Part shown: positions 27,573 through 62,074 of the stretch, piece after piece
Layout of the letters: every line of letters begins with the position of its first letter
How positions within the stretch are numbered: position 1 is the stretch's first letter
Source of the DNA: a virus
Direction: 5' to 3' (one strand)
IMG/VR virus record: IMGVR_UViG_3300010354_000044
Location: 32,001-96,000 of that record
DNA length: 64,000 nucleotides
Position numbers and translations under genes: made by a program
Notes under the pieces: generated by a model
The model's input: the letters and a program-made list of their open reading frames with translations, nothing else
Told to the model about the DNA's origin: nothing
The model's database searches: none

Positions 27573-27887
27573 TCAGAAGTCTAATTCCTGAGCCGCTGGA
27601 AGTGTAACCCCCTTGGAGGCCTTTACGGACTTATCCGCAACAGGCCTTGGCGTCTCTTTTACTACCGGCTCTTGTATAGCAACGGTGCTGCTGCGCGATC
27701 GCTCCACCGCGGCGTTAGTAGGAGGGGCTGTTGACTGAGGTTTATCTAAATAATCCCACGAGACCGTAAGCATAAACTCAAAGACATCGGCCCAGTTTAG
27801 CCTGGCGCGGCGCCTGTTTTCTTGCAGCCGGGTTTTTAATGCTTTTAAACCCTCTACAATCTTTAGGTCCGATATCCTATAGTTCAT
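27573..27887 (-). CDS. ParR-like adaptor/DNA-binding protein
   Basis: Coupled downstream of the actin-like gene (ATGA overlap); disordered tail ending ELDF. Confidence 0.5.
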   Translation of the reverse strand: MNYRISDLKIVEGLKALKTRLQENRRRARLNWADVFEFMLTVSWDYLDKPQSTAPPTNAAVERSRSSTVAIQEPVVKETPRPVADKSVKASKGVTLPAAQELDF

Positions 27888-28972
27888 CCTACCATGACTC
27901 CTACGCGCTGGTTGCTTAGCCTATACAGGGCATGTACATTGCTGAGCTCGGGTTGATCAGGGATATAGATTTCAAAATTCTTCAAAGGGGCGCGCAGAAT
28001 GTTAGCTCCACCGCCGAAGAACATAATACCACTCATCCCTTCACTGCCCGTAGAACCTTTAAATCTATTACTGCACTTAGACTGAATCTCTAGATAATAC
28101 GAGCGAGCTACTTTCCTAAAGATATCAGAAAAGTCAAAGCGCTGATTATTATCCAAGGGGTACTCATATCGCGGTTTGCCGTCATGGCCAATCACCGGGC
28201 GGCATAAAGCATCCATAATAATACCAGAATTGGGAATACCAGTTACTGCATTACGAAATTCTGGGTTATCTGCCAATTGGCTTGTAATAGCGACTACGCC
28301 CGCCAAGGGTGAGCCATTAGAGCCATTATAAGATTCGCGGTCTAGTAGGGTGTTGTCACTATCTAAGGTCACCATCTCAACGGTGCCCCCGCCAATATCC
28401 ACACCTAAAACAGTTCCATATTCCGATAGGTAACCATCTTCCCGCGCAAATACAACAGCATCTAAGCCCTCCGGGCGGCAAACCTTAGGCTTAATAGCAA
28501 CCGTCATATCATAGGCGCCGCTATGGTCCGTATAGGTATACCGGAAAGTCCGCGCGAGGGCCCGCTCCAATCGCTCAGCGACGGTCATCGTAATCTCTTC
28601 ACCCACGTCATCGCGCCCGCGGCAAATTAAACTAGGTTCAGGAAGACTCCAATAAAGTTCTACCTCATAGGAGCAGACTCGCTTACTTAAAGGCCCTAGT
28701 GTAGATAAAACCATAGGCACATAATTTTCAGGCTCAAGCTTGTTTAAGTCCATCAGCTCATGGGCCGCCGCCCCATACTTACGAGCCTGATGCCCAATAT
28801 GCCACGCCCCATATTCATTAGATTCAATAATTACATTATCTGGCTTTACTTCAATCCGGCGGCCAATTAGCTGAGCCATAACTGACTTGCGAGTCCTCGG
28901 CGCCGTCTCATCATCACGTAGTCCATAAGTTGTGTAATTACCAACGTCAATAGCTTGACTAATCGTAGGCAT
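27884..28972 (-). CDS. parM: ParM/StbA-family actin-like ATPase
   Basis: Phosphate-1 AIDVGNYTT, RPEG, phosphate-2 GVDIGGGT, adenosine FFGGGA, PELSNV. Confidence 0.85.
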   Translation of the reverse strand: MPTISQAIDVGNYTTYGLRDDETAPRTRKSVMAQLIGRRIEVKPDNVIIESNEYGAWHIGHQARKYGAAAHELMDLNKLEPENYVPMVLSTLGPLSKRVCSYEVELYWSLPEPSLICRGRDDVGEEITMTVAERLERALARTFRYTYTDHSGAYDMTVAIKPKVCRPEGLDAVVFAREDGYLSEYGTVLGVDIGGGTVEMVTLDSDNTLLDRESYNGSNGSPLAGVVAITSQLADNPEFRNAVTGIPNSGIIMDALCRPVIGHDGKPRYEYPLDNNQRFDFSDIFRKVARSYYLEIQSKCSNRFKGSTGSEGMSGIMFFGGGANILRAPLKNFEIYIPDQPELSNVHALYRLSNQRVGVMVG

Positions 28973-29397: not shown

Positions 29398-29485
29398 AAG
29401 ACCTTGCCGAGTGGTCTTAAAAAATGCTCGGACGGTTTGCCTAGTCCGCTAAAGCTAGGTTGCTGTCGATTCCCAAGGAGGGAAT
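29398..29485 (+). ncRNA. Structured leader: pseudoknot PK1 + pseudoknot PK3 + SD hairpin
   Basis: Covarying copy of the motifs at 32211, 32657 and 33325. Confidence 0.65.
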
Positions 29486-29668
29486 ATGTCTAAAGTAACT
29501 CTAACTGCCGCAACTCTCGTAGTCCTTCTAGGGCTAGGAGGTTGTATGGAGCAGGAGTCTAGCTCCTGCTCGGTCAACGAGCAGGGGGCAGTAGTGAGCG
29601 AGGGGCACGACTGCCCCTCCTCCCATGACCGATTCCCCCGGCGCCGCCAAGGGCCTGGGACCTGGTAA
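29486..29668 (+). CDS. Small lipoprotein
   Basis: AAGGAGG RBS; signal peptide with LGGC lipobox. Confidence 0.6.
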   Translation: MSKVTLTAATLVVLLGLGGCMEQESSSCSVNEQGAVVSEGHDCPSSHDRFPRRRQGPGTW

Positions 29669-29673
29669 CTAAG

Positions 29674-29859
29674 ATGACCTACTACAGGGGTCATTAAATA
29701 AGCTGTAGTTCCCTACCCTGGTGGGCTTGGTGCGGTCCGATTCCGCACTAGGGTTTTGCCTTGAATTTCTTTCTCCAAGGATATTCACACAGGTACTTAG
29801 AGTACAGGCGAAATCTTGTGTATGGATGCCTTTATGCCTACACAAGCTAGGAGAAAAAG
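29674..29859 (+). ncRNA. Structured leader: PK1 + tRNA-like element + 3-way junction/anti-SD module
   Basis: Near-copies at 31504-31685 and 30739-30885 with compensatory changes. Confidence 0.7.
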
Positions 29860-30189
29860 ATGGATTTCAACTTCGTTGACTATAACGGTGCCGACCTCGC
29901 TGGTGAAGACCTCACCGGCGCCAACCTCGTCTGCGCCAACCTTAGCGGCGCCGACCTTACCGGTGCCGACCTCAGCGGTGCCGACCTCGGCGGCGCCAAC
30001 TTTGACGGTGCCAACCTCACCGGCGCCAACCTCACCGGTGCTGACCTCTTTGACACTGTCATCACTAACGCGAACTTTAGCGGTGCTAACCTCAGCGGTG
30101 CTAACCTTAGCCTCGTTGATTTTATTAACTGCAATCTGGTTGGCACCAATTTCGCCGGTGCCAACCTCTACGGCCTCCGCGTTAGCTAA
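29860..30189 (+). CDS. Pentapeptide repeat protein
   Basis: A(D/N)LxG repeats throughout; AGGAGA RBS. Confidence 0.9.
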   Translation: MDFNFVDYNGADLAGEDLTGANLVCANLSGADLTGADLSGADLGGANFDGANLTGANLTGADLFDTVITNANFSGANLSGANLSLVDFINCNLVGTNFAGANLYGLRVS

Positions 30190-30195
30190 CTAAAC

Positions 30196-30336
30196 GACCT
30201 ACTACAGGGGTCACTAAATAAGCTGTAGTGCCCTACACCCAATACAAGGGGGTGCCTGGTAGGTTCGACTCCTACCTAGGGTCTGTCAACAATGCTCTTC
30301 GTTTTGTTGACGATTTTTTAACCATAAGGAGGAAAT
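30196..30336 (+). ncRNA. Structured leader: PK1 + tRNA-like element + terminator-like hairpin
   Basis: GGTAGG-TTCGACT-CCTACC T-arm; TGTCAACAA/TTGTTGACG stem followed by a T tract. Confidence 0.65.
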
Positions 30337-30738
30337 ATGGCAAGTGTTGACTCTTGGGCTGCAGAGATGCAGTTCAAGGCCCTGTGCAAAAAACGGGGCA
30401 TTAAGTTAGTGGCGATATCTGCAAAGGTATTGCCACAGGGGTTACGGTTTGTCGGAAAGCGTAAGCTAGAAAACGCTTTCCGACATTTAAGACTTGCTCA
30501 CCCGAGTGGGCAATTTCCAGCCGGCGAGGTCCTGGACCTCGTCTTTTCTCTGGACGCGGTTATCCAGTACCGCGGTCAGGTAATTGGGGTTGATGTGACG
30601 ATGGACCCCAGCCAGGTTGCAGCTAAAGAAGAGAAGCTGCGCTCTTTGGCCAAAGCGCACGCTGCGATCGGGATTCAACGCTCAGTGACTTACTGCAGCA
30701 CGATTGAATCCTTTGACGAATGGCTGCTGCGCCTATAA
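30337..30738 (+). CDS. Hypothetical protein, possible PD-(D/E)xK-like fold
   Basis: AAGGAGG RBS; LDAVIQYRGQVIGVDVT. Confidence 0.45.
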   Translation: MASVDSWAAEMQFKALCKKRGIKLVAISAKVLPQGLRFVGKRKLENAFRHLRLAHPSGQFPAGEVLDLVFSLDAVIQYRGQVIGVDVTMDPSQVAAKEEKLRSLAKAHAAIGIQRSVTYCSTIESFDEWLLRL

Positions 30739-30885
30739 CCCTGCCCCGGTGGGCTACTCATGGTTCAACTCCATGACAGGGCATTGCCTTGAATTCCTTT
30801 CTCCAGGAATTTTCACTCAGGTACTTAGAGTACAGGCGCAATCTTGTGTATGGATGCCTTTATGCCTACACAAGCTAGGAGAAAC
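30739..30885 (+). ncRNA. Structured leader: tRNA-like element + 3-way junction/anti-SD module
   Basis: TCATGG-TTCAACT-CCATGA T-arm; shared CAGGTACTTAGAGTACAGGCG core. Confidence 0.7.
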
Positions 30886-31488
30886 ATGGCTGTACGTCGC
30901 GAATTTCAAGTCCTCTCTGCCATTAGCAGTGAAGAGGACGTGTTCGACAATCTCCTGCCCGTGCGGGATATAATCTCAGGCCTAGAAGGCCTGCTATTGT
31001 GTAGTGAGGCCTGTACGTGGCCTCAGGATTTGGTTTACGAAGCAACCTGGCTTGAGGGGTGCTATACTCCTCGGGCAGTTAAGGATGACCCTAGGCTGGC
31101 ACTAGGGTTTCATCCCTATACCGAGACACGGTGGAAATACCACTCAGGCGTCTTACGCCTGAGTACGCAGACTACGGAGGGGTGGATTTCGGTTATCAAA
31201 CGTACTAAACGGGCCATGATGGCCTATCTGGAAGGTATTCATCTTCCAGAGGTAGACCTCTGCGGGGTAGACCTTTGGAAGGCTGACCTTCGGGGGGCAA
31301 ACCTTCAGGGGGCAGACCTCAGGGGAGCTGACCTCCGAAGGGCTAACCTTCAAGGGGCTGACCTTCAAGGGGCTGACCTTCGAGGAGCTAAGCTTCTAGA
31401 GGCCAACCTTCTAGAGGCTGACCTTCGGGGAGCCGACCTTTGGGGGGCTTTAGTAGAGAAGGCCACCCTACAAAAGGCGAAGACCTAA
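30886..31488 (+). CDS. Protein with C-terminal pentapeptide repeats
   Basis: ADLRG/ANLQG repeats; ATG at 30886 after AGGAGA. Confidence 0.85.
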   Translation: MAVRREFQVLSAISSEEDVFDNLLPVRDIISGLEGLLLCSEACTWPQDLVYEATWLEGCYTPRAVKDDPRLALGFHPYTETRWKYHSGVLRLSTQTTEGWISVIKRTKRAMMAYLEGIHLPEVDLCGVDLWKADLRGANLQGADLRGADLRRANLQGADLQGADLRGAKLLEANLLEADLRGADLWGALVEKATLQKAKT

Positions 31489-31503
31489 AGTTACTTCCCT
31501 GCT

Positions 31504-31685
31504 TGACCTACTACAGGGGTCATTAAATAAGCTGTAGTGCCCTACTCTGGTGAGCTAGGTGCGGTCCGATTCCGCACTAGGGTTTTGCTTTGTCTATTTA
31601 TCTCCATTTAGACACACAGGTACTTAGAGTACAGGCGCAATCTTACTTGGGACGCCTTTATGCCCTTGTAAGCTAGGAGAACATC
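31504..31685 (+). ncRNA. Structured leader: PK1 + tRNA-like element + 3-way junction/anti-SD module
   Basis: Covarying copy of 29674-29859. Confidence 0.7.
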
Positions 31686-32084
31686 ATGTCTATTATCAAA
31701 CAGACTTCTTCAGTAGTCCCGACTATTGAGGAAGCAACTGCCCTAGCATGCACCCTACGGATGCAGGGGATACCCTGCTATGTGGGGAAAGTTGGAACCC
31801 ACTACCGGGTAGACCCGGCTCTTCCCAAGCAGTACAAGAAACGGGCTAGTAAGAGACCTGCCCGGGACTACATTTCCCTCCTAGGAGGGGATGACTGGTG
31901 CCTTAAGGCGCCGACCAAAGTCCCAAAAACGGGAGACTGGGTGGATTGTACCCCCGAAATGGGGGTGGCGGCCTGCCAGGCCGCTTTGGCAGAGAGGGAC
32001 TGGGAGCTAGTCTCCCGGTTAGAGGTAACGTATTGCGGTAAACCCGCAATACGGGCGACCTATAGCAAGGTACGCCCTAAATAA
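31686..32084 (+). CDS. Hypothetical protein
   Basis: AGGAGA RBS after the structured leader. Confidence 0.65.
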   Translation: MSIIKQTSSVVPTIEEATALACTLRMQGIPCYVGKVGTHYRVDPALPKQYKKRASKRPARDYISLLGGDDWCLKAPTKVPKTGDWVDCTPEMGVAACQAALAERDWELVSRLEVTYCGKPAIRATYSKVRPK

Positions 32085-32092
32085 CCAGCCAC

Positions 32093-32298
32093 CGACCTGA
32101 CACCACGGTCGTTAAATAAAAGGTGACGCCGAGCCCGAGGGATTGTTTATATCCATAGCGTGGTGCCTGTGCAATTCAGGCTTAAATTGGCGTGCCGGTT
32201 TGAATCCGGCGTGACTTTGCCAGGTAGTCATTAAATATGCCCGGACGGTTTGCCTAGTCCGCGAAAGCTAGGTTAGTTTATCCCGAAGGAGGGAAATT
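32093..32298 (+). ncRNA. Structured leader: PK1 + two T-arm-like hairpins + PK1 + PK3 + SD hairpin
   Basis: GCCTG-TGCAATT-CAGGC and GCCGG-TTTGAAT-CCGGC lie between two PK1 copies. Confidence 0.6.
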
Positions 32299-32526
32299 AT
32301 GGGCCTCTTTTACGCCGCTGCTACCCGGTGTTCCTGTGGCGATTTTGTGCTTGTCTGGAACGAGGAGACGGGGGTTCAATACCCCGTCCACAGATCTGTG
32401 CCCAAAGATGGGCACTGGTATAGATTAATCATCGTTGAATACAACGAGAGCCATCTGTACAGATGGCTTCGTCGGGATTATATCCCGGGGGTTCAGTTCC
32501 AAGAATTCCAGGGTGTAGAAGAATAA
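32299..32526 (+). CDS. Hypothetical protein
   Basis: AAGGAGG RBS. Confidence 0.6.
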   Translation: MGLFYAAATRCSCGDFVLVWNEETGVQYPVHRSVPKDGHWYRLIIVEYNESHLYRWLRRDYIPGVQFQEFQGVEE

Positions 32527-32539
32527 ACCCTGGAATTTA

Positions 32540-32749
32540 AACTCTGTCTAAGCTGCGCCAATTAATCTAATTCTGCTTTGCAGCCTAGGCAGAGTTCTAT
32601 TCGCTGCGCCTGTCGCCTGCCCCTGTAGGCTACTTGCGCAGCTATTTAGTCAATCCATGACCCAGACATAGGGTCATTAAATATATATGTCCGGTTTGTC
32701 CAGCCCGTCCAAAGCTGGATTACTCACCTATTCCCAAGGAGGGAACATC
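32540..32749 (+). ncRNA. Structured leader: long hairpin + PK1 + PK3 + SD hairpin
   Basis: Homologous to 33180-33416 with compensatory changes. Confidence 0.6.
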
Positions 32750-33175
32750 ATGAGTTTAGTAATTCGGAATATGCCAGCCCACACCGCGTGGGTTGAGTAT
32801 CAACGGGCCATTAAGGCTCTGGAGACCCGGTTGGCCCAAGAAGGGCTCCGTAGGTATACCTACGGATGGGATACGAAGCTCACGGAAATAGCTCCCCCTA
32901 CGGAGGGGGAGCTTTGGTCTTGTAACGAGGACCTGGCTGCCTACCTCCACGAGATTGTGGAGCTATATATCCCGGAGGAAGGCCTCCGGGGGCCGGATAA
33001 GGCCAGATTAGTACTCAGACTTCAGGCGTTAAGGGCGCTTGGGGTTAAAGCCCCACCGGGCAATGTATATAGTATTTACAGGTTGCTAGGGGGCGAAGGT
33101 CCCCCTGCCCAGAACTTGAAGCTCCGCCTTACGGAGCTCATAAACTTCCTGGAACGCAACGAGGAAGTTTATTAA
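32750..33175 (+). CDS. Hypothetical protein
   Basis: ATG at 32750 after AAGGAGG, with the same leader as the RNAP fusion gene. Confidence 0.65.
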   Translation: MSLVIRNMPAHTAWVEYQRAIKALETRLAQEGLRRYTYGWDTKLTEIAPPTEGELWSCNEDLAAYLHEIVELYIPEEGLRGPDKARLVLRLQALRALGVKAPPGNVYSIYRLLGGEGPPAQNLKLRLTELINFLERNEEVY

Positions 33176-33179
33176 CTAG

Positions 33180-33416
33180 CAGCCGGAGTATAAGCTGCGC
33201 CTATTGGCTGTATACACGCAGTTTCTACTCCGGCTAAGTGGGTGTGTCTGCTGCGCCTATCCCCTGCCCCTGTCGGCTACCTGTAGGACTATTCCTACTT
33301 ATGGCTGACAGGGGCATTTTGCTTTGACCCAGATATGGGGTCGTTAAATATACGTATTCGGTTTGTCCAGCCCGCCCAAAGCTGGATTAGTAAATTATTC
33401 CCAAGGAGGGAACATC
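33180..33416 (+). ncRNA. Structured leader of the helicase-RNAP gene
   Basis: AGCCGGAGTA/TACTCCGGCT hairpin, degenerate tRNA-like element, PK1, PK3, TTCCC-AAGGA-GGGAA. Confidence 0.6.
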
Positions 33417-36400
33417 ATGGCTATTTTGACCATTCTTACCGTTACCGCTACTATCTCAGCCTCCGCCCCTGGGGCTAAGCCCAAAGCGCGTAAGCGCCCC
33501 AACCGTGCTGCACAAAAAGCACAGCAACGCAGGGCCGCATTCTTACGTCGTAAGCGGCAGTCCCGTAATGGGCGCCGCCCATTCCATGGGGTGCGGTATT
33601 GTAATATTGCTGATAGGCCCAAGGCCCGTCAGCAGAAGTTTTGGGCCCGTGCCCGTAAGCTGGGAGTTGCCAGGGAGGTAGCCCACCTCCTATGGATGGG
33701 CGACGACTTAGGCGCCAGGCGCGTCCTTAAGGAGGCCCGGCGGCGCTACCAAGTAAAGCGTAGCCTTGTGCTGCGCACCCCGGTTGATAGCCGGGGGGAC
33801 GAAGCTTTACAGGCCAGGCCCAGTCTAAAACCCTCCACCGGGAGGGTATTTGAGAGGGGCACTAAAGGGAAACCCCCACGTAACTGGGGGTTGACGAAAA
33901 AGTCCCAGCCAGAGCCTAGCTGGCGGGACTTCCTTGTTAAGGCTAGGGAGGTTCACCGGGACATCCTAGCTGACCTGGTTAGGGTCGTGGGTGGGGAGCC
34001 TACAGACACCGTTGTCTGTATGGCCCAAACCCCTCCTCCCCCTTCCCCCCAAGGGCGGCAGTCTACCCTCCAAAGGGTAAATGGGCTAGGGCTACCGTTT
34101 GAGCTGTCGGAGGACCAGCTCACCGCCCTAGACAAGATGCTGGCGTTCGCAGAGAGCCCGGCCCGTGGAGGTACCTTTACCTTAGAAGGGTACGCGGGTA
34201 CAGGTAAGACTACTTTGCTACCTATTTTCCTACGGTTACTGCCAAGGAATATCCGGGCGGCTACCGCAGTAACCGCGCTCAGTAACAAGGCGGCGCGTGT
34301 ACTGTCTGAGAAGCTACGGGGCCAAGGTTTACGTGTAGAGGCTTCTACCATTCACAAGCTTCTAGGTATTAAGGCTATCAAACAGAATGCAGAGATTCAG
34401 TTTGATAGGGGAGGGAGCTGCACTATCAGCGAAAACTTGCTCGTTATCGTAGACGAGGCGTCTATGCTGGGCGAGGTCTTATGGAACCATATGACTTCCT
34501 ACTTCAAGAGCATTAAGTTCTTATTTACAGGCGACCCAGCTCAGTTACCGCCTGTTAACGAAACTGGGGCTCCGTGTTTTAGCTTGGCTGATGACTATGC
34601 CAAGTTGACTAAGGTCCTTCGGCATGGCGGTCCAGTTCTACGTGAGTCAACGCTAGTCCGTGACCTGGGGCATGGTACTTACCACCCGGCTCAGTCGCTG
34701 AGTGAAGGTAATAACGTCTTCTGTTATCAGCACATTAACTGGTTTAAGGTCATTAGTGGGTTGGTAAGTGACCCTGAGAAGTGGGCCAAATTTACCGATG
34801 ATCCTAACTTCTTTAGGATTGTGGCCTGGCGTAACGCTAGGGTTGCTGAGCTAAATACCTATGTCCGCCAACTATTGCACGTAGGGAAAAAGCTGGAGCG
34901 TTTCATGGTGGGGGACCTTGTCATATTAGACGCCCCGTATGAAGACCTCTTTACAGGGGATGAGTTTTGGGTACGTGCTGTAAATAATGGCAAGGTTGAT
35001 GGCTGGAATTGCCTGGAGATTACCTTGGAACCGGTGCATGATGCAAAGGCTGAAACTATAGTACGAGTGCTTGCTGCGGAGGAAGCAAGCCGGTACAAGC
35101 AAGAGTCAGACCGGTTACGTGAACTGGCAACACAGCATGTTATTCCTTGGGCGGAGTACTGGGCGTTGCAAGAATTATTCGCAGGGCTCAGTTATGGCTA
35201 TGCTATGACAGTCCACAAGTCTCAAGGGTCTACGTTTCGTAACGTTCTGGTGGACTATAGCGACATCAAGTTATGTAGGGGTCTTGAGCTTAATAAGCTT
35301 ATCTACGTAGCTATAAGTCGTGCGTCTAAGAACGTCATTATGAACGTAGGCACGAGTCCCATTTATGAGCGGGTGAAACCTGCCGGGGAAATTGATACAG
35401 GACCGCCGGAAATACCAGAACCCCCGGTGGTGAATGCCCAGGAGCCTGTGGTAGAGGAGGCCCCGCCTACCTTGCCAGAGGAAGAGTCTGTTGCTGAGGT
35501 AGGCGCGAGCGTCTCTATTGCTGTTGCTCCACAAGAGCCGGCAGTAGAGGAAACTCAGGCTGCGCCTATTAACACAGGGCAGCCTGTGACGGAAACAACC
35601 ACGAAGGAGGAAACTATGTGGTTTGTAGAGATTGACGTAGCGGAACTCACGTTCTTTGCTACAAAGACCAATCATGCGGGTACATTCCCCGTCAACGGTC
35701 TAGAAGTCTTTAAGAAGGGCTTGCTAGGCAAGGGGTATAAGCTTGTGGAAACGCAAGTAGGCCCCGAAGGGGAGGAGCTTAAGCTCGTCTACGCTAAGCA
35801 GCCGCCTACGGCGCTTGGTGGAGAACGAGCCCCGGCTGACCCGCCTGACCAGCCGTTTGCTTCTGGCAACGTAGCCCAGTTCAAGCAGACGGTGCTGAAC
35901 TTTATTGCTCAGCGACTCGGGAAGCTGCACCAGCAGTATCCCGAGTCTGGTATGCGGGAGTTGATCGTCCGCATGACAGAGGCGATTAACTACAGCCCGC
36001 GGGATGCCTTCTTCGCCGCTCCGCTCAGTGACATGCTAAGTATGTGGGTATTTGAGGCGACCCACTCTAAGGAGCTTGGTAACCGGCCTATTCCGGTTAT
36101 TGAGAAGGAGGCTTACTACCTCTCTGGTAAGTGCCTCACTGGGCGCCCGTCGCTGATCGGAGACTTGGACCTTCTGTTGAGCCGCCAACGGCTTGACATT
36201 GAAGGCGATAGTTACCGCCTGCGGTATCCCATTGAGCAGGTAGAGGCGGCGATACTGGACGCTGAGGGCCGGGATCTCTATGAGGGTTACCGGGTTATCC
36301 TCAGCGAGGGTATCAAAAGCCACGCTGTCCTCAATGGTAACTTCCCCCACCTAGGGGTTGAAGTTGAGGATATGGCGGCAGCGCTGACTGTCCACCAGCT

Positions 36401-39400
36401 AGCGCCCAGTGCCTTTAGCTATGGCCTGCCTATCGTCAAGGCTGTGCTTGCAGAGCACCTGGCCGAGGTGCTTTGTCAACTTGGCTATAGCGAGGCTGTA
36501 GCAGGGATGGTAAGCATCCCTGCTGGGTGGAATCTGCCTTGCCCGCAGATGACTGTCGCTAAGCTCAAGAATATGCTTGAGTACATTAGCGACGTGTTCT
36601 CTTCTTTTGGTATCAAGGATTACGAGTATATCTCGTTGAGTCCTGATGCCACGGAGGAGAAGTTCACCGTGTACATCTGCGGCATTGAATTTGCCGTGGA
36701 TGCTCAAGGTGTAACCTTGGTTGACGCGCTGAATCAGAAGGCCATATACGCCACGTATATGGCCCTTCCTATTTGCCATAGAAGCATCCGGGAGGATGAA
36801 GGCGCTTTGATGAGCCCTCACGCGGTCTTCGCCTATATGCTAGCTGAGGTTGTCTTGCCTCTGCTAGTTCGGGTAGACCGTGATAGCTACCGGAATAGGC
36901 TGGTAGGTAGCAATGTCATGCAAACCTACTTCCGAGTAGCTGGGGCGGTAAACACGTATCTTCGTAATTACGTGTCTATTGACCTCCGTTCAGCTACCAT
37001 CGGTGAGCTAGACGACGCAGCAGAAGCCCGCAACCGGGGTGTCGTGGCAGTAGCCTTGAACTACCCCCGCTCCCTATACCGGGATGCTCTGCCTTCAGAG
37101 GTCAAGTCTGGCAATGGATTCTCCATGCTTAACGTAGGCCTTATGAAGGGAAACATCTACGTTGGGGGTGGCAAGGCTATGCCTTCTGAGCTCAGCGTAG
37201 AGGAACGGCAGAACCTAATCCTTGAGCGCGCTGCGCTTAAGACTTTGGGTTACGCTAACACTCAAGTAGTCCACAAGCGGATGCTTGAGCTCGGCTTCTG
37301 CCAAGAGCCGTTCGGGCGGATGACTGTGGTATCGCAGGACATCCATGGCATTAACTTCACAGGTCAGAAAGAAGCTGTGAAGGACTTCTGGGAAAGCCAG
37401 GGCGTCGTAGATGTCATGGAGGTGGCTGCAATCCTAGGCTGCAGAGCAGACTGGACGGAGATCGCGCGAGAAACTTTCGTCGCGTTGTCCAATAAGGGCG
37501 CTAAGCAGCTCAAGCGGACGGCCAACTTCTACCACAATGGCTGTATCTTCATTAGCCAGGCGGTGCAGGCGGCTCAGACCAACGGGGTCTTCAATGAAAT
37601 CAAGGCACTGGCTGTTAAGGCAATTATTGCCAACAGTGCTTTATTCGGTGGCCCTGGTATGGTTTGGGCTAACAAGCAGAAGATTCAGGACATGGGCATC
37701 CGGTACCGCACCGGTGGCCAGGTCTATGAATTCAGCTCCGAGAGTCAGCTGTACTGCGAAGGCTTCGCTTATGAAGCTCAGCATTATAACGAGCACTCCG
37801 GCTGGAACAGCGTGGAGCCTGTAGACCTCCATGTTGTAGAAGGCCGGCCCTTCGGCTTGCTCATCAAGCACGACGGGTACGAGGCAAACATCTCTGCAGA
37901 GCAGAGTGGCCAGGTCACTAAGATCATGTGGCGCTGGGTCACGAAGTTCAATGCCGAGGTGATGGAACTCCGGCTCATCTATGATAAGCGGGAGTATGGC
38001 GCCTTTAAGATCCGTAATGGCTACAAGGGCCTAGTTGCCTTCGTTGAGCCTGAACTGATCGGCAAGGGTGCTGACCTGGTTATCTTCGGGGATGCCAATA
38101 AAACCATGGACATTCTCTACTCCCGCCTACGGGAGGCCGCAGAGAGCTTCGTCCGGGTGCCCCGTGGAACTACCGTTACCCTTAACGGTAAGGACTATGA
38201 TCTCCGCGAGCTGCTGCGTTCATTGAACCAGCAGGCTGGTCCGGCCATGGGTATGGCTATTGAAGACTATGACAGGGATGATCGCCTGTTCATTGACTTC
38301 AAGCTGTTGGCTAAAGGCGCTTACGACATTGTAGGCGAGCTCTTTGAAGCTATCTTTGGCCAGTCCCACTGGTTCCGTTTTGATGGGCCCGACCTGGTCA
38401 AGTTCACGGCCCAGTATTACGGAGCCAAAGCGGAAGCCAACGAAGGCTGGCGTAAGCTGGTTCCTGCTGAGCTTAAGGGTCTAGGCTACCCGAACGCCGT
38501 CGGTTTTACCGATGGTAAAGTAAATGACCCGCATAGCAATGTGCTGGTTGTTGAAGAGGGTGTCGTGCACCACCGTTCCTGGGTCTATGCCGCTAAAGAC
38601 GGTATTGACCTGTATGTTCCGATTAAGCCGGAATATACCACCGTCAGCCAGAACGTGAACTATGCACCTTTGGCTCTCGGCCCTATTGTAGACCCCAGTA
38701 TCCCGACTGAGGTGGCCCGGGAGCTCATCCATGCTGGTGAGGCCAATCGGACCAAGTACACGCTTCTGCATATTTTGCGGAAGCATAGCCTGGGTCCTGT
38801 GGCGTTCACGATGGGTGGCGTTGAAGTGCAGACCGTAACTCTGGCTAGCACGGATACGTTTGCTGGCTTCTTTGGTGAGCATACCCAGATGCTTCAGCAC
38901 AAACGGGCCCTCAGCCGCACTAGTTTTGTACGCGCACTCTGCAACCTATTGCAGACTAAAGTGCTGTGCGTGGAAACTAGTAGATGGACCGAGAGTGGTA
39001 GGGTGATGGCTAACATTTACCTACCTCTGTTGTCCAGCTTTATCATCGGCTCGCTGGATGACCATGCCGATGAGAGCAGCCTCGCGGGTAATGCCTTCAT
39101 GTTCTTTGACATGTGGGCCGCGGGTGAATCGCTCAGTAGCCCAGCCATGGTCAAGATTGCAACTACCATAAGCAATCTGATCAGCAAGCTCTGCGACGGT
39201 AATCGTATGCAGAAGCAGCTGACCTATGGTCCTACCGCTGTAGGTGCGAAGTTGGGTGCATTGCCCATTATCCCCACTGGGGAGCTATGGGTGCTGCGTG
39301 GTGGCGAAGTGCATCGTCGCTTGAAAGTGCGCTTTGGCGATGCCATTAACAATGGCTACGTCATGATGGTGCGTGCGCCTATGACCCGTTCTTGCATCTG

Positions 39401-41942
39401 CAAACTGCGGGTTGTAGACGCTGAGCAGCGTGGGTTTGTACTAAACGGAGTGATGATGTATACATCTCCCTTCGGTCAGTACTTTAATCTAGGTGACTTT
39501 GACGGCGATGGTGTCTTTACCTATGACATCACTAAGTACGTCAACGCTGGGCTCATCAAGCAAGACTCCTACGAGTCTATGCTGGAGTTCCAGAAGTCCC
39601 TGCTCGGGTATGACATGATGTCCCCTGAGTTCTGGGGTTCTGGCGCCCCTGCTCAGTATTATGCAGACCACTATGACATTCCTAGCTACGCTGCTCTGCA
39701 GAAGAAGCTGGGTATGAAGTGTCTGGATAGCGAAGGGCGTTTGATGAACCCTGAGAAGGCCCATGTCTTTAACCGAAAAGCGTTTGAGCTAAGGCAGACC
39801 GGGGCATATGAACAGCAGACCCGGTATGTCTCTTCTTCTTATGGAGTAGAGTACTTTGCTCAGGTCTTTGCTGAGATCTGCCGGGCTATGGGCTTTAAAG
39901 ACTTCATGTGGCTGGCTGACCTAGCGCCGCAGCTGCAGTCCTTGTATGAGGTCGCCCTGGGTGGATACGACAACAACATGTTGTATGTCGCCTTTGGCCT
40001 TATGGACCGAGCCTATAACGGTATGAAGCATACGCCGCACTGGCTGAAGATTGTAGATGAAGATATCTACGATCGCTTCGTTACCGGCAAGACTCATTAC
40101 TACCGGCCTACGGCGTTTCTGAAGGATACTGAGTATACAGCCTTCACCGGGCTGCCCTTTACTGAGGTTCTTCCTTACATGCAGACCCTAGGCTTCTGCT
40201 GGAAGGATGGTAAGCGGGATGATGAGGCTATCCATGGCTTCATCAATGCCGCTATGCTCGCAGGGCTTGCTAAGGTTGCCCGAAAGCTTCCTAAGCCTGA
40301 AGACAGCACTAGCCCGGCTGCGATCGTAGACCAGCTGTTTGAAGATATGGTCGCTGTCTACGGGCGTGACTTTGCTACGGCTGTTCATATGGCGCAGATT
40401 ATCTGCGACACAAGCCGTAATAAAGATAATCAGCGGGGTGGTCAACTGTGCCGGCTTGTTCATGAGCACATGATTGAGCGTTCAGCCGTTGCGCTATTGT
40501 TCAAGCTCATCATGGATGCAAAGCAGCGTATTAACGCGCCCACGCCCGAGCTTAATATTAACGATGTCATTGCTTTGACTCGTTATATTGAGCTTGCTGA
40601 TGTCCTCTCTGAACAGGATGAGGAGTTCCTTGATGTACCTAGTACATCTGGGGAAGCTGCGGCAGAGCCTGAAGATGATAATCAAGGTGATGATGATGAA
40701 GGGGGCATTGCTGTGCCGGAGCCTACTCCGGATAAGCCCGGCCCTGCACCAGGAGCTGCTGAGCCCATTGAGGAGAGCCCTGCTGGTATTGTTCAAGAAG
40801 ATGCAGGATCTTGTATCGTACAAGATCCAGCTACTGTGGAGGTAAAATCCATGTACGTGCAGAACTGGTTCTCAAATATGCTCCCATTAGAAGTCCCAAT
40901 TAAGACTGACTTTGGGACCTTTCAAACGGTAGAGAACTACTACCAGGCTATGAAAACCCTAGACTTGGAGCAAAGGAAAATTATAGCTGAGCTATCTCCC
41001 CACGCTAGTAAGCGTTATGGTCGGCGTAAAATTCAATTACGCTCTGACTGGGAGCAGATCAAGCTAGCTGTTATGGAGGAAGCTCTTCGCAAGAAATTCG
41101 CTCCTGGGACTAAAGCCCTTGAGAGATTACTTGCAGAAAAAGGTGAGATAGTTGAATGGAATAACTGGGGTGATACTTACTGGGGGGCTCTTGCTACTTT
41201 AAGTAATGACGGAACAGTTATTCCTGTTGAGCCTCGTAAAGGCTGTAACCATCTTGGGCGTTTGCTCATGGCCGTTAGAGACGAACATTTAGCGGAGAAT
41301 AAAGTGACCGGAATATTTGACGTGCCCGCGCAGGTGCTGGTTAATCCAGTTAACTGCGGCGGTACCTGGGGCGGAGCTCTTTCCAAAGGGTTCATAGACC
41401 GATACCCAGAAAATACAGCCGCCCTCAAAGTGGCCTCTGAAGCCGGGTCCGTTAAGATAGGGCAGGTGTTAGTGACTGAGGAAGGGGGTAAGTTCATTGT
41501 GAACTTACCTACTAAGCTGGATGCTAACATCCCCAGCCGGCTCGTTGACATAGAAGCTGGTTTATACGCCTTACTAGCCTGGGCTCTGGTTAATAAGCCC
41601 AAATCCATTGCCATACCCGCCCTAGGGTGTGGCCTCGGTGGGCTTAAGTGGGAGGATGTGCTCCCAGTGATTAAACAGGTAGCCACGCTTATGGGTAACC
41701 ATGGTATTGTGGTTTACCTGTTTAACGACCGTGCCGAGCTAGTCACGGTTGACGGAGTTCCTGTCCAGTACGAGGAAGAAATCGTAGAGGAAGAGGTAGT
41801 AGAGCCCCAGCGTCCTACTCTTCCTAAGCTACCTACCCTCAAGCCTCCACAGGCTAACGATGAGGACGAGTATGTGGAGTATGTGGAGCAGGACCCCAAC
41901 ATGCCTGAAGCTGAAGTAGGGGGTCTCTTCAATAATCAATAA
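33417..41942 (+). CDS. Multidomain protein: Dda/RecD-like SF1B helicase + single-chain two-barrel RNA polymerase + NADAR + DarG-like macrodomain
   Basis: Helicase: GYAGTGKTT, IVDEASM, GDPAQLPPV, TVHKSQGST, YVAISRA. RNAP: FKIRNGYKG...ADLVIF (38007), VRAP...NLGDFDGD (39495-39509). NADAR: FSN...VENYYQAMK...DWEQIK...WGDTYWG...NHLGRLLM. Macro: VNPVNCGG...NLPTK...IAIPALGCGLGGLKW. ATG at 33417 after AAGGAGG. Confidence 0.85.
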   Translation: MAILTILTVTATISASAPGAKPKARKRPNRAAQKAQQRRAAFLRRKRQSRNGRRPFHGVRYCNIADRPKARQQKFWARARKLGVAREVAHLLWMGDDLGARRVLKEARRRYQVKRSLVLRTPVDSRGDEALQARPSLKPSTGRVFERGTKGKPPRNWGLTKKSQPEPSWRDFLVKAREVHRDILADLVRVVGGEPTDTVVCMAQTPPPPSPQGRQSTLQRVNGLGLPFELSEDQLTALDKMLAFAESPARGGTFTLEGYAGTGKTTLLPIFLRLLPRNIRAATAVTALSNKAARVLSEKLRGQGLRVEASTIHKLLGIKAIKQNAEIQFDRGGSCTISENLLVIVDEASMLGEVLWNHMTSYFKSIKFLFTGDPAQLPPVNETGAPCFSLADDYAKLTKVLRHGGPVLRESTLVRDLGHGTYHPAQSLSEGNNVFCYQHINWFKVISGLVSDPEKWAKFTDDPNFFRIVAWRNARVAELNTYVRQLLHVGKKLERFMVGDLVILDAPYEDLFTGDEFWVRAVNNGKVDGWNCLEITLEPVHDAKAETIVRVLAAEEASRYKQESDRLRELATQHVIPWAEYWALQELFAGLSYGYAMTVHKSQGSTFRNVLVDYSDIKLCRGLELNKLIYVAISRASKNVIMNVGTSPIYERVKPAGEIDTGPPEIPEPPVVNAQEPVVEEAPPTLPEEESVAEVGASVSIAVAPQEPAVEETQAAPINTGQPVTETTTKEETMWFVEIDVAELTFFATKTNHAGTFPVNGLEVFKKGLLGKGYKLVETQVGPEGEELKLVYAKQPPTALGGERAPADPPDQPFASGNVAQFKQTVLNFIAQRLGKLHQQYPESGMRELIVRMTEAINYSPRDAFFAAPLSDMLSMWVFEATHSKELGNRPIPVIEKEAYYLSGKCLTGRPSLIGDLDLLLSRQRLDIEGDSYRLRYPIEQVEAAILDAEGRDLYEGYRVILSEGIKSHAVLNGNFPHLGVEVEDMAAALTVHQLAPSAFSYGLPIVKAVLAEHLAEVLCQLGYSEAVAGMVSIPAGWNLPCPQMTVAKLKNMLEYISDVFSSFGIKDYEYISLSPDATEEKFTVYICGIEFAVDAQGVTLVDALNQKAIYATYMALPICHRSIREDEGALMSPHAVFAYMLAEVVLPLLVRVDRDSYRNRLVGSNVMQTYFRVAGAVNTYLRNYVSIDLRSATIGELDDAAEARNRGVVAVALNYPRSLYRDALPSEVKSGNGFSMLNVGLMKGNIYVGGGKAMPSELSVEERQNLILERAALKTLGYANTQVVHKRMLELGFCQEPFGRMTVVSQDIHGINFTGQKEAVKDFWESQGVVDVMEVAAILGCRADWTEIARETFVALSNKGAKQLKRTANFYHNGCIFISQAVQAAQTNGVFNEIKALAVKAIIANSALFGGPGMVWANKQKIQDMGIRYRTGGQVYEFSSESQLYCEGFAYEAQHYNEHSGWNSVEPVDLHVVEGRPFGLLIKHDGYEANISAEQSGQVTKIMWRWVTKFNAEVMELRLIYDKREYGAFKIRNGYKGLVAFVEPELIGKGADLVIFGDANKTMDILYSRLREAAESFVRVPRGTTVTLNGKDYDLRELLRSLNQQAGPAMGMAIEDYDRDDRLFIDFKLLAKGAYDIVGELFEAIFGQSHWFRFDGPDLVKFTAQYYGAKAEANEGWRKLVPAELKGLGYPNAVGFTDGKVNDPHSNVLVVEEGVVHHRSWVYAAKDGIDLYVPIKPEYTTVSQNVNYAPLALGPIVDPSIPTEVARELIHAGEANRTKYTLLHILRKHSLGPVAFTMGGVEVQTVTLASTDTFAGFFGEHTQMLQHKRALSRTSFVRALCNLLQTKVLCVETSRWTESGRVMANIYLPLLSSFIIGSLDDHADESSLAGNAFMFFDMWAAGESLSSPAMVKIATTISNLISKLCDGNRMQKQLTYGPTAVGAKLGALPIIPTGELWVLRGGEVHRRLKVRFGDAINNGYVMMVRAPMTRSCICKLRVVDAEQRGFVLNGVMMYTSPFGQYFNLGDFDGDGVFTYDITKYVNAGLIKQDSYESMLEFQKSLLGYDMMSPEFWGSGAPAQYYADHYDIPSYAALQKKLGMKCLDSEGRLMNPEKAHVFNRKAFELRQTGAYEQQTRYVSSSYGVEYFAQVFAEICRAMGFKDFMWLADLAPQLQSLYEVALGGYDNNMLYVAFGLMDRAYNGMKHTPHWLKIVDEDIYDRFVTGKTHYYRPTAFLKDTEYTAFTGLPFTEVLPYMQTLGFCWKDGKRDDEAIHGFINAAMLAGLAKVARKLPKPEDSTSPAAIVDQLFEDMVAVYGRDFATAVHMAQIICDTSRNKDNQRGGQLCRLVHEHMIERSAVALLFKLIMDAKQRINAPTPELNINDVIALTRYIELADVLSEQDEEFLDVPSTSGEAAAEPEDDNQGDDDEGGIAVPEPTPDKPGPAPGAAEPIEESPAGIVQEDAGSCIVQDPATVEVKSMYVQNWFSNMLPLEVPIKTDFGTFQTVENYYQAMKTLDLEQRKIIAELSPHASKRYGRRKIQLRSDWEQIKLAVMEEALRKKFAPGTKALERLLAEKGEIVEWNNWGDTYWGALATLSNDGTVIPVEPRKGCNHLGRLLMAVRDEHLAENKVTGIFDVPAQVLVNPVNCGGTWGGALSKGFIDRYPENTAALKVASEAGSVKIGQVLVTEEGGKFIVNLPTKLDANIPSRLVDIEAGLYALLAWALVNKPKSIAIPALGCGLGGLKWEDVLPVIKQVATLMGNHGIVVYLFNDRAELVTVDGVPVQYEEEIVEEEVVEPQRPTLPKLPTLKPPQANDEDEYVEYVEQDPNMPEAEVGGLFNNQ

Positions 41943-46610: not shown

Positions 46611-47321
46611 ATGTACTTAGTAGGGGGGTCCGTTAGGGACCTTTTGTTAGAGCTCACTGTTGACGACTACGACTTTGTATTCGTAGCCTACAGCTGGGAG
46701 CATTTGGTAGAACTAGCCCAAGGGGAGTTTGGGCCAGTTCCTAAGGCCGGGACGGAATCTGGATTTGTTGAATTTCCAGACACCTTCACCTTAAAGGGGA
46801 TGAAGGTGATTGATAGGAAGCGGCAGATCTGTGACATTGCCGCTGCCCGGCGGGAATACCACAGTGGCCCCGGGCATAAGCCCTCGGCTATTTCTTTGGC
46901 GCCTACGCTAGAGGAAGACCTAAAGCGCCGGGACTTCACAGTTAACGCGATGGCACGTGACTGGAAGACCGGTGAGTTAATTGACCTATATGGCGGGCAG
47001 GCCGACCTGTCCGCCAGGGTGCTTCGCTGTGTCGGCGATACGGAAAAACGCCTATTAGAGAACCCAGACCGGGTAATCCGGGCGTTTTATTTCCAGTGTA
47101 AACTAGTAGGCTTCACATTCTGTGAAGAGCTGGAAGCAGTTCTTCGTGAGTCTGTGGTGGTTCAAAAAGCAGTCGCCGACGACTGCCCTGACCGAAAAGC
47201 TCAGCAGCTGACTAAGCTCCTTAAAAGGGCTTCAACGGCTGAGCTGATGGGAACGATCTCCGAATACCCCCAAACATGGGCGGCGATCACAAAGGGGCTT
47301 AAGCTAAAGTTCACAACTTAA
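46611..47321 (+). CDS. tRNA nucleotidyltransferase/poly(A) polymerase family protein (head and neck only)
   Basis: YLVGGSVRDLLL...DYDF, DLKRRDFTVNAMA, ENPDRVIRAF. Confidence 0.85.
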   Translation: MYLVGGSVRDLLLELTVDDYDFVFVAYSWEHLVELAQGEFGPVPKAGTESGFVEFPDTFTLKGMKVIDRKRQICDIAAARREYHSGPGHKPSAISLAPTLEEDLKRRDFTVNAMARDWKTGELIDLYGGQADLSARVLRCVGDTEKRLLENPDRVIRAFYFQCKLVGFTFCEELEAVLRESVVVQKAVADDCPDRKAQQLTKLLKRASTAELMGTISEYPQTWAAITKGLKLKFTT

Positions 47322-60077: not shown

Positions 60078-61139
60078 ATGAGAATGATAAGATTCCCTGA
60101 CGTTGGACAATTTAGGAATGTGGTCCAGTCACTTCGTCTGCGTGCTCAATTTGCAGGCAAGGCAGAGGATGGGACTCCTATTTATGACGAGTCAAGAAAG
60201 GCGCAGCCTGTTACCTTTTCTGGAACTGTAAAGCTTGATGGAACCAATGCTGCTATCTGTTTTGATGGCGAGAATACCTGGTTCCAGTCCCGAGAGAGGA
60301 TTCTTACCCTTGAAAGTGATAACTATGGGTTTTGTCGGAGATTTCAACAGGATGAAGCAGTTACTTCTTTGATTTCAAGTGTCACTGCAGCAGTGGAGTT
60401 TTCTAACGGGGAAACTCTTTGCATCTTTGGAGAGTGGATTGGAAAAGGCATTGCCAAGGGTATGGCCGTCTGTCAGATTGAGAGAGAGTTTATTGTTTTT
60501 GGCGTTGCTGTTTGCTCAGCCTTTGAAGGTGAACAGGCGGATGACTCTGCCTCTCTTAAGTGGATTGATTTAGGTACGCTTGATCAGGCGATTAAGGGTA
60601 GTGGCTTTGACACTGTTCTATCTTGTCCTCAGTATTTGCTTGTCGTTGATCCAGAGAATGCGGAGGCAGCCTGGCATACTGCAAAATCGCTAACTGACCT
60701 TGTTGTTAGTGAATGTCCATTTGGAAAGCTTCGCGGGAAAGTTGGAGCCGGAGAGGGTATTGTTTGGTTTGGTACTGATGATACTGGGAAAACTTTCCTG
60801 TTTAAAACCAAAGGGCAGAAGCAGTCTGTTGTCTCCTCTCCTAAGGAACTCCCTAAGTTTGAGGCTCAGGGTGCAATTAACACCTTTGTCACTGATGTAC
60901 TTACTGAGGCCCGGTTGAATCAAGGGATTGAGCGGGTCTTTACTGCAAACGACATTGTTCCGTCTATTGAAAAGACTGGCTCCTTCCTTCAGTGGATCAG
61001 CCGCGACATTGAAAAGGAGGAGGGTTTCTCTTTTGAGGCTCTTGCTGCTCTTGGTATTACCAAGAAGAAAGCTATGGGTCCAGTCAATCGTGCCGCTCGC
61101 GATTGGTTTATGGACTATCTAAACTTGTTGTCCCTGTAG
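60078..61139 (+). CDS. RNA ligase (Rnl2-like)
   Basis: Motif I VKLDGTN, QSRER, FGEWIG, GEGIVW, FKTK; ILTEARL-like C-domain. Confidence 0.8.
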   Translation: MRMIRFPDVGQFRNVVQSLRLRAQFAGKAEDGTPIYDESRKAQPVTFSGTVKLDGTNAAICFDGENTWFQSRERILTLESDNYGFCRRFQQDEAVTSLISSVTAAVEFSNGETLCIFGEWIGKGIAKGMAVCQIEREFIVFGVAVCSAFEGEQADDSASLKWIDLGTLDQAIKGSGFDTVLSCPQYLLVVDPENAEAAWHTAKSLTDLVVSECPFGKLRGKVGAGEGIVWFGTDDTGKTFLFKTKGQKQSVVSSPKELPKFEAQGAINTFVTDVLTEARLNQGIERVFTANDIVPSIEKTGSFLQWISRDIEKEEGFSFEALAALGITKKKAMGPVNRAARDWFMDYLNLLSL

Positions 61140-62003: not shown

Positions 62004-62074
62004 GAGACATTAGCTTAATGGTAAAGCACGGGGCTTTTAACCTCTTGATGAAAGTTCGATTCTTTCATGTCTCA
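62004..62074 (+). tRNA. trnK: tRNA-Lys (UUU), CCA not encoded
   Basis: GAGACAT/ATGTCTC acceptor, GCTT-AATGGTA-AAGC D arm, CT-TTT-AA loop, GAAAG-TTCGATT-CTTTC T arm. Confidence 0.85.

Follow-up and report, generated by a model that had tools for sequence, protein, structure and literature searches.

A giant viral gene encoding a helicase, a predicted two-barrel RNA polymerase and two ADP-ribose hydrolase domains in one chain

The stretch of viral DNA considered here, called the window, comprises positions 32,001 to 96,000 (64,000 nucleotides) of the IMG/VR record IMGVR_UViG_3300010354_000044, which is 171,984 bases long and estimated to be 87% complete. It contains one giant gene on the plus strand, at 33417..41942, with 2841 codons plus stop. 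Its product joins, in this order, a basic N-terminal region, a superfamily 1B (SF1B) helicase, a predicted single-chain RNA polymerase with two barrels, a NADAR domain and a macrodomain, and the coordinates given for these parts below are all on the plus strand. The open frame as listed runs from 33363 to 41942 (+) and gives 2859 amino acids (aa) if counted from an upstream TTG. Translation probably begins at the ATG at 33417, because the ribosome-binding site (RBS) AAGGAGG stands seven bases before it and a repeated leader module ends there; residue numbers refer to the resulting 2841-aa protein (P0002 numbering). An earlier note on this DNA had described an uninterrupted frame of about 2840 codons at this place, and the frame is indeed intact.

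Is a frame of this length real, or do a mis-assembly or a lost stop fuse separate genes? The protein is unusually long, and the database entry for its orthologue (P0003) begins 294 codons too late, at a start set by the gene caller. Against an artefact, the same uninterrupted frame is found in the syntenic JGI metagenome contig L011 (4603-13122, 2,839 codons), where the encoded protein is 86% identical over the whole length. Both ends of the gene are bridged by independent lake metagenome contigs of about 91% identity: one spans the leader, the N-terminus and the helicase into the polymerase, and the other covers the end of the polymerase, NADAR, the macrodomain and the stop. A more distant relative, P0004, holds the basic N-terminus, the helicase and the polymerase in one frame at 33% identity. 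Lastly, every domain is under purifying selection. The ratio of nonsynonymous to synonymous substitution (dN/dS, by the Nei-Gojobori method, window gene versus L011 orthologue) is 0.088 for both the polymerase core and NADAR, 0.16 for the helicase and 0.40 for the macrodomain, and reaches 0.46-0.87 in the two linkers. With an intact orthologue, bridging contigs and selection throughout, an assembly or stop-loss artefact, which the earlier note had named as a danger to its reading, is so improbable that it can be set aside.

The protein begins with about 17 hydrophobic residues followed by an Arg/Lys-rich stretch (aa 1-225, 33417..34091, delimited by composition; dN/dS 0.38). With 49 Lys and Arg within its first 200 residues, it agrees with the Arg-rich N-terminus of the earlier note, and it has no match in the PDB. 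The same basic region occurs in P0004, P0005 and P0007; since P0005 has the region but no helicase, it goes with the polymerase and not with the helicase.

The helicase (aa 226-655, 34092..35381) is of the Dda/RecD2/Pif1 type. Pfam profiles match residues about 230-655 above their cut-offs: AAA_30 (1.2e-21, 77.7 bits versus 27), UvrD_C_2 (7e-10, 39.1 versus 27.4) and PIF1 (28.5 versus 25.9 bits), together with AAA_19. The domain belongs to PHROG 325, Dda-like helicase (1.6e-77), and its PDB matches are 9kwf_B (2.2e-36), T4 Dda 3upu (3.4e-15) and RecD2 3e1s (8e-11). Walker A (GYAGTGKT at 258, with K264), Walker B (VDEASM at 345) and motifs III-VI, including GDPAQLPP and TVHKSQGST at 598, are intact. 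The SF1B motifs thus stand where they had been noted, and Pfam, PHROG and PDB agree on them. A Pro/Glu-rich linker follows (aa 656-735, 35382..35621; dN/dS 0.46).

With regard to the middle of the protein, residues about 690-2480 match nothing in Pfam or PHROGs, and PDB chains yielded no meaningful match to the central ~1,600 residues, whether by sequence or by profile. The assignment comes instead from the predicted fold and from conservation within a family of relatives. Three parts can be delimited: an N-terminal part (aa 736-1299, 35622..37313), defined by alignment with P0004 and by the head lengths of relatives (dN/dS 0.15-0.18); a beta-like half with the first barrel (aa 1300-1750, 37314..38666); and a beta-prime-like half with the second barrel (aa 1791-2340, 38787..40436). 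The module probably begins near residue 870, because many relatives have ~1,450 residues with ~430 of them before the modelled core. Beyond the second half lies a helical end of low confidence, followed by an acidic, Pro-containing second linker (together aa 2341-2478, 40437..40850); the linker has 26 Asp and Glu in P0001 residues 2401-2500 and a dN/dS of 0.87.

The AlphaFold2 (AF2) model of aa 1300-2440 has a mean predicted local distance difference test score (pLDDT) of 84.5 and a predicted template modelling score (pTM) of 0.85; pLDDT is mostly >85 in the beta-like half (model residues 1-450) and falls below 50 from model residue 1055. A Foldseek search of this model against the PDB returned 162 matches at E<=1e-3, and each of the 50 listed is a chain of an RNA polymerase, either Rpb2/beta or beta-prime. 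VIA-align, run without Foldseek, placed QDE-1 at the top (7y7p_A, Z 13.4, 398 residues aligned, model 4-1029), with further QDE-1 structures at Z 13.7 (5fsw_B, 411 aligned) and Z 13.2 (7y7s_A, 431 aligned). A second look with the same tool gave four QDE-1 structures at Z 13.2-13.7 with 411-431 residues aligned and an overall span of model 4-1039. After QDE-1 come two phage enzymes, P74-26 gp62 (Z 10.9, 378 aligned) and P23-45 gp96 (Z 10.0, 316 aligned). The two halves are also recognized separately: Rpb2/beta chains match model 5-450 (Z about 11, about 265 aligned), beta-prime/Rpb1 chains match model 492-1039, and isolated double-psi beta-barrel (DPBB) domains match model 640-750 (Z 9-11). A long helix at model 821-859, after the second barrel, is a candidate bridge helix.

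Conservation points to the same elements. An exhaustive HMMER search with residues 1300-2440 yielded relatives that cluster, at 50% identity, into 48 representatives of 370-4,100 residues. Over the resulting 49 sequences, K1531, R1533, K1537, D1559, K1562, D1565, R1986, P1988, G2026, D2027, D2029 and G2030 are conserved at >=90%. They fall within a K-x-R-x-x-x-K element, an R-x-P element and, about 40 residues further on, a GDxDGD loop; in the present protein the corresponding motifs are FKIRNGYKG (1530), ADLVIF (1552), VRAP (1985) and NLGDFDGD (2024). The loop is kept in all full-length relatives and reads GDFDGD here (aa 2026-2031, with D2027, D2029 and D2031). A barrel with a DxDxD metal loop, a basic beta-type barrel and the overall fold across both halves are thus present, as expected of the two-barrel superfamily. 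On the strength of the model, the middle of the protein is assigned as a single-chain two-barrel RNA polymerase, beta-like half first, in the clade of QDE-1 and the phage single-subunit enzymes. The beta then beta-prime order read from motifs in the earlier note is borne out by the predicted fold and by matches to RNA polymerases on both halves.

How close is this enzyme to QDE-1? In a protein-atlas language-model search, 23 of the 30 nearest clusters lie in a set whose listed cluster has PF05183, the RNA-dependent RNA polymerase (RdRP) family, on 57% of its members; viral proteins predominate in the top-ranked clusters. The PF05183 profile itself (QDE-1 and eukaryotic RdRP) gave no match at E<=0.1. 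The polymerase is thus related to the QDE-1 family by predicted fold and language-model neighbours only, and is best called QDE-1-type rather than a member of PF05183.

As for the C-terminal modules, the NADAR domain (aa 2479-2630, 40851..41306) is matched by Pfam at 2.1e-18 (67.5 bits versus a gathering score of 35.1) and by E. coli YbiA (2b3w) at 1.2e-13. The residue that separates the subfamilies is Glu in YbiA, His in T4-like phage NADARs and Asp in DarT1-linked NADARs (PMC11543638, PMC11125620). Here IVEW aligns with YbiA LVEH, Glu on Glu, and is followed by D-x-YWG, which places the domain in the YbiA subfamily. The macrodomain (aa 2631-2775, 41307..41741; Pfam Macro 1.3e-10, 41.7 bits versus a cut-off of 22) finds its best PDB matches in the M. 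tuberculosis and T. aquaticus DarG structures 5m3i (2.5e-19) and 5m31 (1.9e-17), and then in human TARG1 4j5r (4e-7). Its LPTK, part of NLPTK at 2696 with Lys2700, aligns with the FPTK of DarG, which contains the catalytic Lys, so that it is of the TARG1/DarG type. The pair of a NADAR and a macrodomain with the DarG-type lysine, as earlier proposed, is therefore confirmed by the Pfam, YbiA and DarG matches. Nothing like the DarT-binding domain of DarG follows the macrodomain, only an acidic tail of 66 residues, and no ADP-ribosyltransferase (darT) was found among the ORFs neighbouring the giant gene; the macrodomain is thus an orphan eraser domain and not a DarG antitoxin. The tail (aa 2776-2841, 41742..41939) is rich in acidic residues and Pro, ends in GGLFNNQ and is conserved in L011 (dN/dS 0.16); one possibility is that it docks a partner, for instance a clamp or the single-stranded DNA-binding protein (SSB).

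Two parts of the gene look mosaic by sequence comparison. The helicase (34092-35381) has a synonymous divergence (dS) of 1.4 versus 0.2-0.4 in its flanks, and the first half of the macrodomain (41307-41516), its most diverged part, is a divergent version with the loop GGTWGGA where the L011 orthologue has the canonical VGVMGKG. Both also show as diverged stretches in the lake contigs.

What do the relatives carry around the polymerase? An SF1B helicase is found in the same chain in nine of the 48, at the N-terminus in two (the L011 orthologue and P0004) and at the C-terminus in seven. Because it occurs at both ends, helicase and polymerase have been joined at least twice, and this repeated joining, as far as the sequences tell, suggests a shared task, without which it would be hard to explain. 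Between polymerase and helicase, P0047 has an AlkB-like 2OG-Fe(II) dioxygenase domain and P0041 a DUF4326 domain, and P0009 ends in a weak NADAR. Other modules are found at the place of NADAR and macrodomain: a DprA/YpsA (SLOG) gene (L002:9248-10228) follows P0005, and in P0004 an unrelated 230-residue tail (residues about 2450-2686) stands there. The relatives sit among small unknown ORFs and not beside structural genes. No shorter homologues turned up in a word-indexed search, and no match was obtained either by tblastn with three family members against GenBank phages or by megablast of the giant gene against phage and plasmid collections.

It was only by fold search and profile search that a homologue in cultured phages, the Fukuivirus phages of Microcystis, came to light. 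The best match of the core model in BFVD is an uncharacterised protein of MaMV-DC (E 3.4e-17, TM 0.56 by target), and the family profile matches MaMV-DC ORF65L (1,677 aa; L016:9225-14258, minus strand) at E 6e-9, with GDADGD on GDFDGD and KLRGLGK on KIRNGYK. ORF65L has no Walker A motif and is a helicase-less polymerase homologue; its counterpart in Ma-LMM01 is gp064 (L017:10812-15833, minus strand), and both are annotated as "hypothetical protein". The two proteins, gp064 and ORF65L, are judged to be true, distant homologues of the polymerase module, which differ from the giant protein in their length of about 1,675 aa and in having no helicase, NADAR or macrodomain. In Ma-LMM01, gp064 is expressed in middle class B5, together with replication genes (PMC5780444 supplement). 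A 42-bp tandem repeat array separates it from the ten early genes, gp054-gp063, immediately downstream. The transcriptome paper assigns all phases to the host sigma-70 polymerase, and a phage polymerase goes unmentioned in it (PMC5780444).

The present phage and these cultured phages also share a portal, for which Ma-LMM01 and MaMV-DC are the nearest (26% identity), and a giant ORF adjacent to it. This second giant ORF of the window (5354-14509, plus strand, 3,051 aa) has no Pfam match and is syntenic with Ma-LMM01 gp080 and MaMV-DC ORF82L. All seven homologues found keep DFDGD, and one of them comes from a Leptolyngbya assembly. Its AF2 model has a pLDDT of 46, and BLASTP and hhalign of the polymerase against it aligned only the 14-residue catalytic motif. 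By analogy with P23-45, it is a possible second (virion) polymerase.

The surroundings of the giant gene have features of their own. Its leader (33325..33416, plus strand; repeat-family search D6, D9 and D11, and sequence) comprises a hairpin, a TTAAATA box and the RBS AAGGAGG before the ATG. The 95-base module also precedes the gene at 32750, in a copy that is 87% identical (32658-32752), and the repeat search found related copies at 29400 and 32213. Across 29400-33416 such modules are repeated ahead of consecutive genes, one ending at the ATG of the giant gene, and their elements come in the order GACC...GGTC hairpin, TTAAATA, second hairpin and RBS hairpin (ATTCCCAAGGAGGGAA). Such modules might serve a phage polymerase as promoters or terminators, or act as RNA elements. 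The neighbours of the giant gene are small genes on the same strand that carry these repeated leaders, and the G+C content of about 28-52 kb, which includes the giant gene, is 0.50-0.55 versus 0.43-0.46 on either side.

Pentapeptide-repeat proteins can mimic DNA, and the two encoded in this block (29816-30193 and 30844-31488, plus strand) are candidate anti-restriction or anti-gyrase factors. Just upstream, and divergent from the plus-strand block, is a gene for an Alp7A-like actin (27884-28972, minus strand), which is kept in L011. The structural block, with a Mu-type portal, baseplate and fibre genes and the 3,051-codon ORF, lies apart from the giant gene, and so does the replication block, at the far end of the genome, with a DnaG-like primase, PolA, a clamp-loader-like protein, a RecA-like protein and a separate PIF1-like helicase. 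The position of the giant gene suggests expression from a non-structural block, and its Ma-LMM01 homologue is a middle gene. The phage also has an RNA-repair set, consisting of a CCA-adding enzyme head domain, an RNA ligase, tRNA-Lys(UUU) (window 46611-47321, 60078-61139 and 62004-62074) and a protein with kinase and metallophosphatase parts that resembles polynucleotide kinase-phosphatase (L006:16839-19061). The host is probably a cyanobacterium, because the samples are from freshwater lakes, a homologue of the second giant ORF occurs in a Leptolyngbya assembly and pentapeptide-repeat genes are present; this is a lead and not a result.

How might these modules work together? Dda, RecD2 and Pif1 travel 5′→3′ on single-stranded DNA (ssDNA), and RNA polymerases read their template 3′→5′. 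If the present helicase has the polarity of its family, as assumed here, it would track 5′→3′ along the non-template strand. Its direction would then match that of the polymerase, so that the two could travel together, the helicase opening the duplex and passing the single-stranded template to the polymerase. The unwinding would also expose ssDNA, the substrate of DarT. The tethered NADAR, acting on ADP-ribosylated guanine (guanine-ADPr), and the DarG-type macrodomain, acting on thymidine-ADPr, could then clear the blocks where the polymerase would stall, and between them the two erasers would deal with both of the DarT lesions known, right where the single strand is bared.

Published biochemistry gives this scheme its plausible targets. 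DarT1 modifies guanine and DarT2 thymidine in ssDNA, which blocks phage replication and transcription (PMC11543638, PMC11825919). All tested NADAR subtypes hydrolyse guanine-ADPr and none thymidine-ADPr, and DarG macrodomains do the reverse (PMC11125620). The phage NADAR AdfN neutralises DarTG1 (PMC11825919), and a phage DarG2-like macrodomain is reported as a counter-defence (PMC13309987). Comparative support comes from relatives with other domains in their stead: an AlkB-like one in P0047, DUF4326 in P0041 and a weak NADAR in P0009. A phage transcription machine, that is, a polymerase with its own unwinding motor and with lesion erasers against DarT-type damage, has about an even chance of being the right description, judging from sequence and model. 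The four domain assignments of the earlier note stand. Its functional reading, a transcription machine that cleans ssDNA against DarTG, is plausible, with comparative support from the nine fusions among the 48 relatives, and its interpretation as a whole is partly supported.

Several observations weigh against this description. Among the 48 relatives, NADAR and macrodomain occur together only in the giant protein and its 86%-identical orthologue; being so confined, they are a recent add-on, and their coupling to the polymerase is not required. A fused helicase is absent from 39 of the 48 relatives, including the Ma-LMM01 and MaMV-DC homologues, so that the polymerase is not strictly dependent on a helicase in cis. 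The macrodomain lacks the DarT-binding domain, evolves fast (dN/dS 0.40) and has GGTWGGA as its first phosphate-binding loop versus VGVMGKG in the orthologue. The NADAR is YbiA-type; two NADARs, E. coli YbiA and one from a phage, were active on guanine-ADPr in vitro but gave no protection against DarT1 in cells (PMC11125620). Finally, soluble ADP-ribose derivatives are, according to a comparative survey, the targets of most Macro, NADAR, SLOG and DUF4326 domains in phages (PMC9503650).

Could the modules, then, be no more than beads on a string? The protein would be a polyvalent carrier of independent activities, and its NADAR and macrodomain would hydrolyse soluble ADPr immune signals or by-products of RNA repair. 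The linkers between the modules are long, rich in Pro, Glu and Asp and fast-evolving (dN/dS 0.46-0.87), and the tandem of NADAR and macrodomain is found in one lineage only, with an unrelated tail in P0004 and an SLOG gene after P0005. Macro, NADAR, SLOG and DUF4326 co-occur in DNA viruses, where soluble ADPr targets have been proposed (PMC9503650), and the phage has RNA repair of its own, with a PNK-like protein, an RNA ligase and a CCA-adding enzyme. However, the macrodomain retains the catalytic Lys, and its nearest solved structures are the macrodomains of DarG, enzymes that remove ADP-ribose from thymidine in ssDNA; in relatives, the same place is taken by AlkB-like domains, whose targets are nucleic-acid bases; and at least two helicase-polymerase fusions argue for a functional linkage of at least those two modules. 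The gene also lies outside the structural block, where polyvalent proteins are usually found (PMC5512222). All in all, such a carrier is possible, and we regard it as rather doubtful.

Two other proposals keep the modules connected and give them a different task. If the erasers served RNA, they would strip ADP-ribose from nascent phage transcripts under attack by ADP-ribosyltransferases that target RNA, or process NAD- or ADPr-linked RNA ends at the exit of the polymerase. Both domains are indeed C-terminal, after the polymerase, and NADAR hydrolases are reported to reverse ADP-ribosylation of RNA bases as well (PMC11833690). This role is nevertheless improbable, given that the DarG-type thymidine specificity has no RNA counterpart, that the sequence has no sign of RNA binding and that neither an ADP-ribosyltransferase nor a capping gene is seen nearby. 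The remaining proposal is replication: a primase-helicase, or an initiator forming R-loops, that makes RNA primers on unwound DNA. QDE-1-type enzymes do start promoter-free on ssDNA (10.1101/2020.03.07.982082), the fusion of a helicase with a priming polymerase is a common replisome design, and Ma-LMM01 gp064 is expressed in middle class B5 with replication genes (PMC5780444). Yet the phage already has a DnaG-like primase, PolA, clamp-loader-like and RecA-like proteins and a separate PIF1-like helicase among other helicases in a block of their own, for which reason the giant protein is not taken for a replicative primase. Its gene stands among small leader-bearing genes far from that block, and the known phage members (crAss gp66, P23-45 gp64 and gp96) are transcriptases. 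A replicative role is accordingly judged unlikely.

What would it mean if the transcription machine were real? A transcription-coupled removal of the base damage that host defence causes would be a new counter-defence principle. Erasers of guanine- and thymidine-ADPr that are tethered to a polymerase suggest repair of the template at the point of use, which would extend the anti-DarTG strategies of standalone NADAR and DarG-like proteins. The fusion of the helicase in both orders offers, in one polypeptide, a means to ask how the ssDNA-preferring polymerases of QDE-1 and crAss type obtain their template. The family itself, of single-chain two-barrel polymerases, is known almost only from metagenomes, counts 48 clusters at 50% identity and has no sequence match in Pfam, PHROG or PDB; members without annotation also occur in cultured Microcystis phages. 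Were gp064 a polymerase, the view that Ma-LMM01 runs wholly on the host sigma-70 polymerase would be overturned, and a phage-encoded enzyme would change how infection programmes of the Ma-LMM01 type are read in bloom-forming cyanobacteria. Taken jointly, these strands permit a tentative proposal, with the balance tilted against it: the QDE-1-like phage polymerases may form a large, unnamed family, including Ma-LMM01 gp064, that is helicase-driven, with a motor independent of promoter melting, and has swappable direct-reversal repair domains (NADAR, macrodomain, AlkB-like, DUF4326).

How does the giant protein compare with systems already described? Like QDE-1 of Neurospora and Thielavia (7Y7P, 7Y7S, 5FSW), it has both barrels in one chain, beta then beta-prime, and a DxDGD loop. 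It differs from QDE-1 in an identity of 8-11%, in coming from a phage and not from a eukaryote, in having the helicase in the same chain and in its extra N- and C-terminal modules. QDE-1 works far better on ssDNA than on RNA, and on ssDNA templates it needs the helicase QDE-3 and replication protein A (RPA) (10.1101/2020.03.07.982082).

Among phages, P23-45 and P74-26 carry two single-chain two-barrel polymerases each, a non-virion RNA polymerase (nvRNAP, gp64/gp62; 8F5M) and a virion RNA polymerase (vRNAP) fused to the tape measure (gp96; 8H2M) (PMC10770324). The present phage resembles them in its single-chain two-barrel polymerase and in the second giant DFDGD ORF beside the portal, here a putative polymerase; sequence similarity to their enzymes is undetectable, and those have neither helicase nor ADP-ribose hydrolase domains. 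With gp66 of the crAss-like phage phi14:2 (6VR4) it has in common that a giant phage protein contains a QDE-1-like polymerase. The present phage is not crAss-like, however, its portal being nearest to the Fukuivirus cyanophages; further differences are the motif DFDGD versus DFDID, the N-terminal helicase, the DarG-type macrodomain and the position of the gene outside the structural block. Neither crAss gp66 (6VR4) nor YonO is among the VIA-align matches listed, which is not evidence against kinship.

The two erasers share their folds with the DarG macrodomain and the phage NADARs AdfN and T4 gp30.3 (PMC11825919), together with the catalytic Lys in the one case and a YbiA-like catalytic region in the other. 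Phages are known to turn both kinds of enzyme against DarT2 and DarT1. Unlike in DarG or AdfN, both stand in tandem and are fused to a polymerase, the macrodomain has no DarT-binding domain, and the NADAR has Glu and not His or Asp; viral domains of this kind are typically standalone outside RNA-virus polyproteins (PMC9503650). As a multidomain protein, it invites comparison with the polyvalent proteins of phages and conjugative elements, which are encoded with virion or transfer genes and delivered with the DNA. Published ones usually lie in the structural block (PMC5512222), whereas this gene is in a block of small leader-bearing genes and its relatives, too, are found among small ORFs.

The earlier note knew of no described protein with this architecture, and a literature search found no paper in which a two-barrel polymerase shares a chain with a helicase, or with NADAR and macrodomain. 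The claim should nonetheless be softened: the components are in print, namely the single-chain two-barrel phage polymerases, the standalone phage NADAR AdfN (PMC11825919) and a phage DarG2-like protein with its macrodomain (PMC13309987). What the present finding adds to them is the pattern across the whole family and the link to Ma-LMM01.

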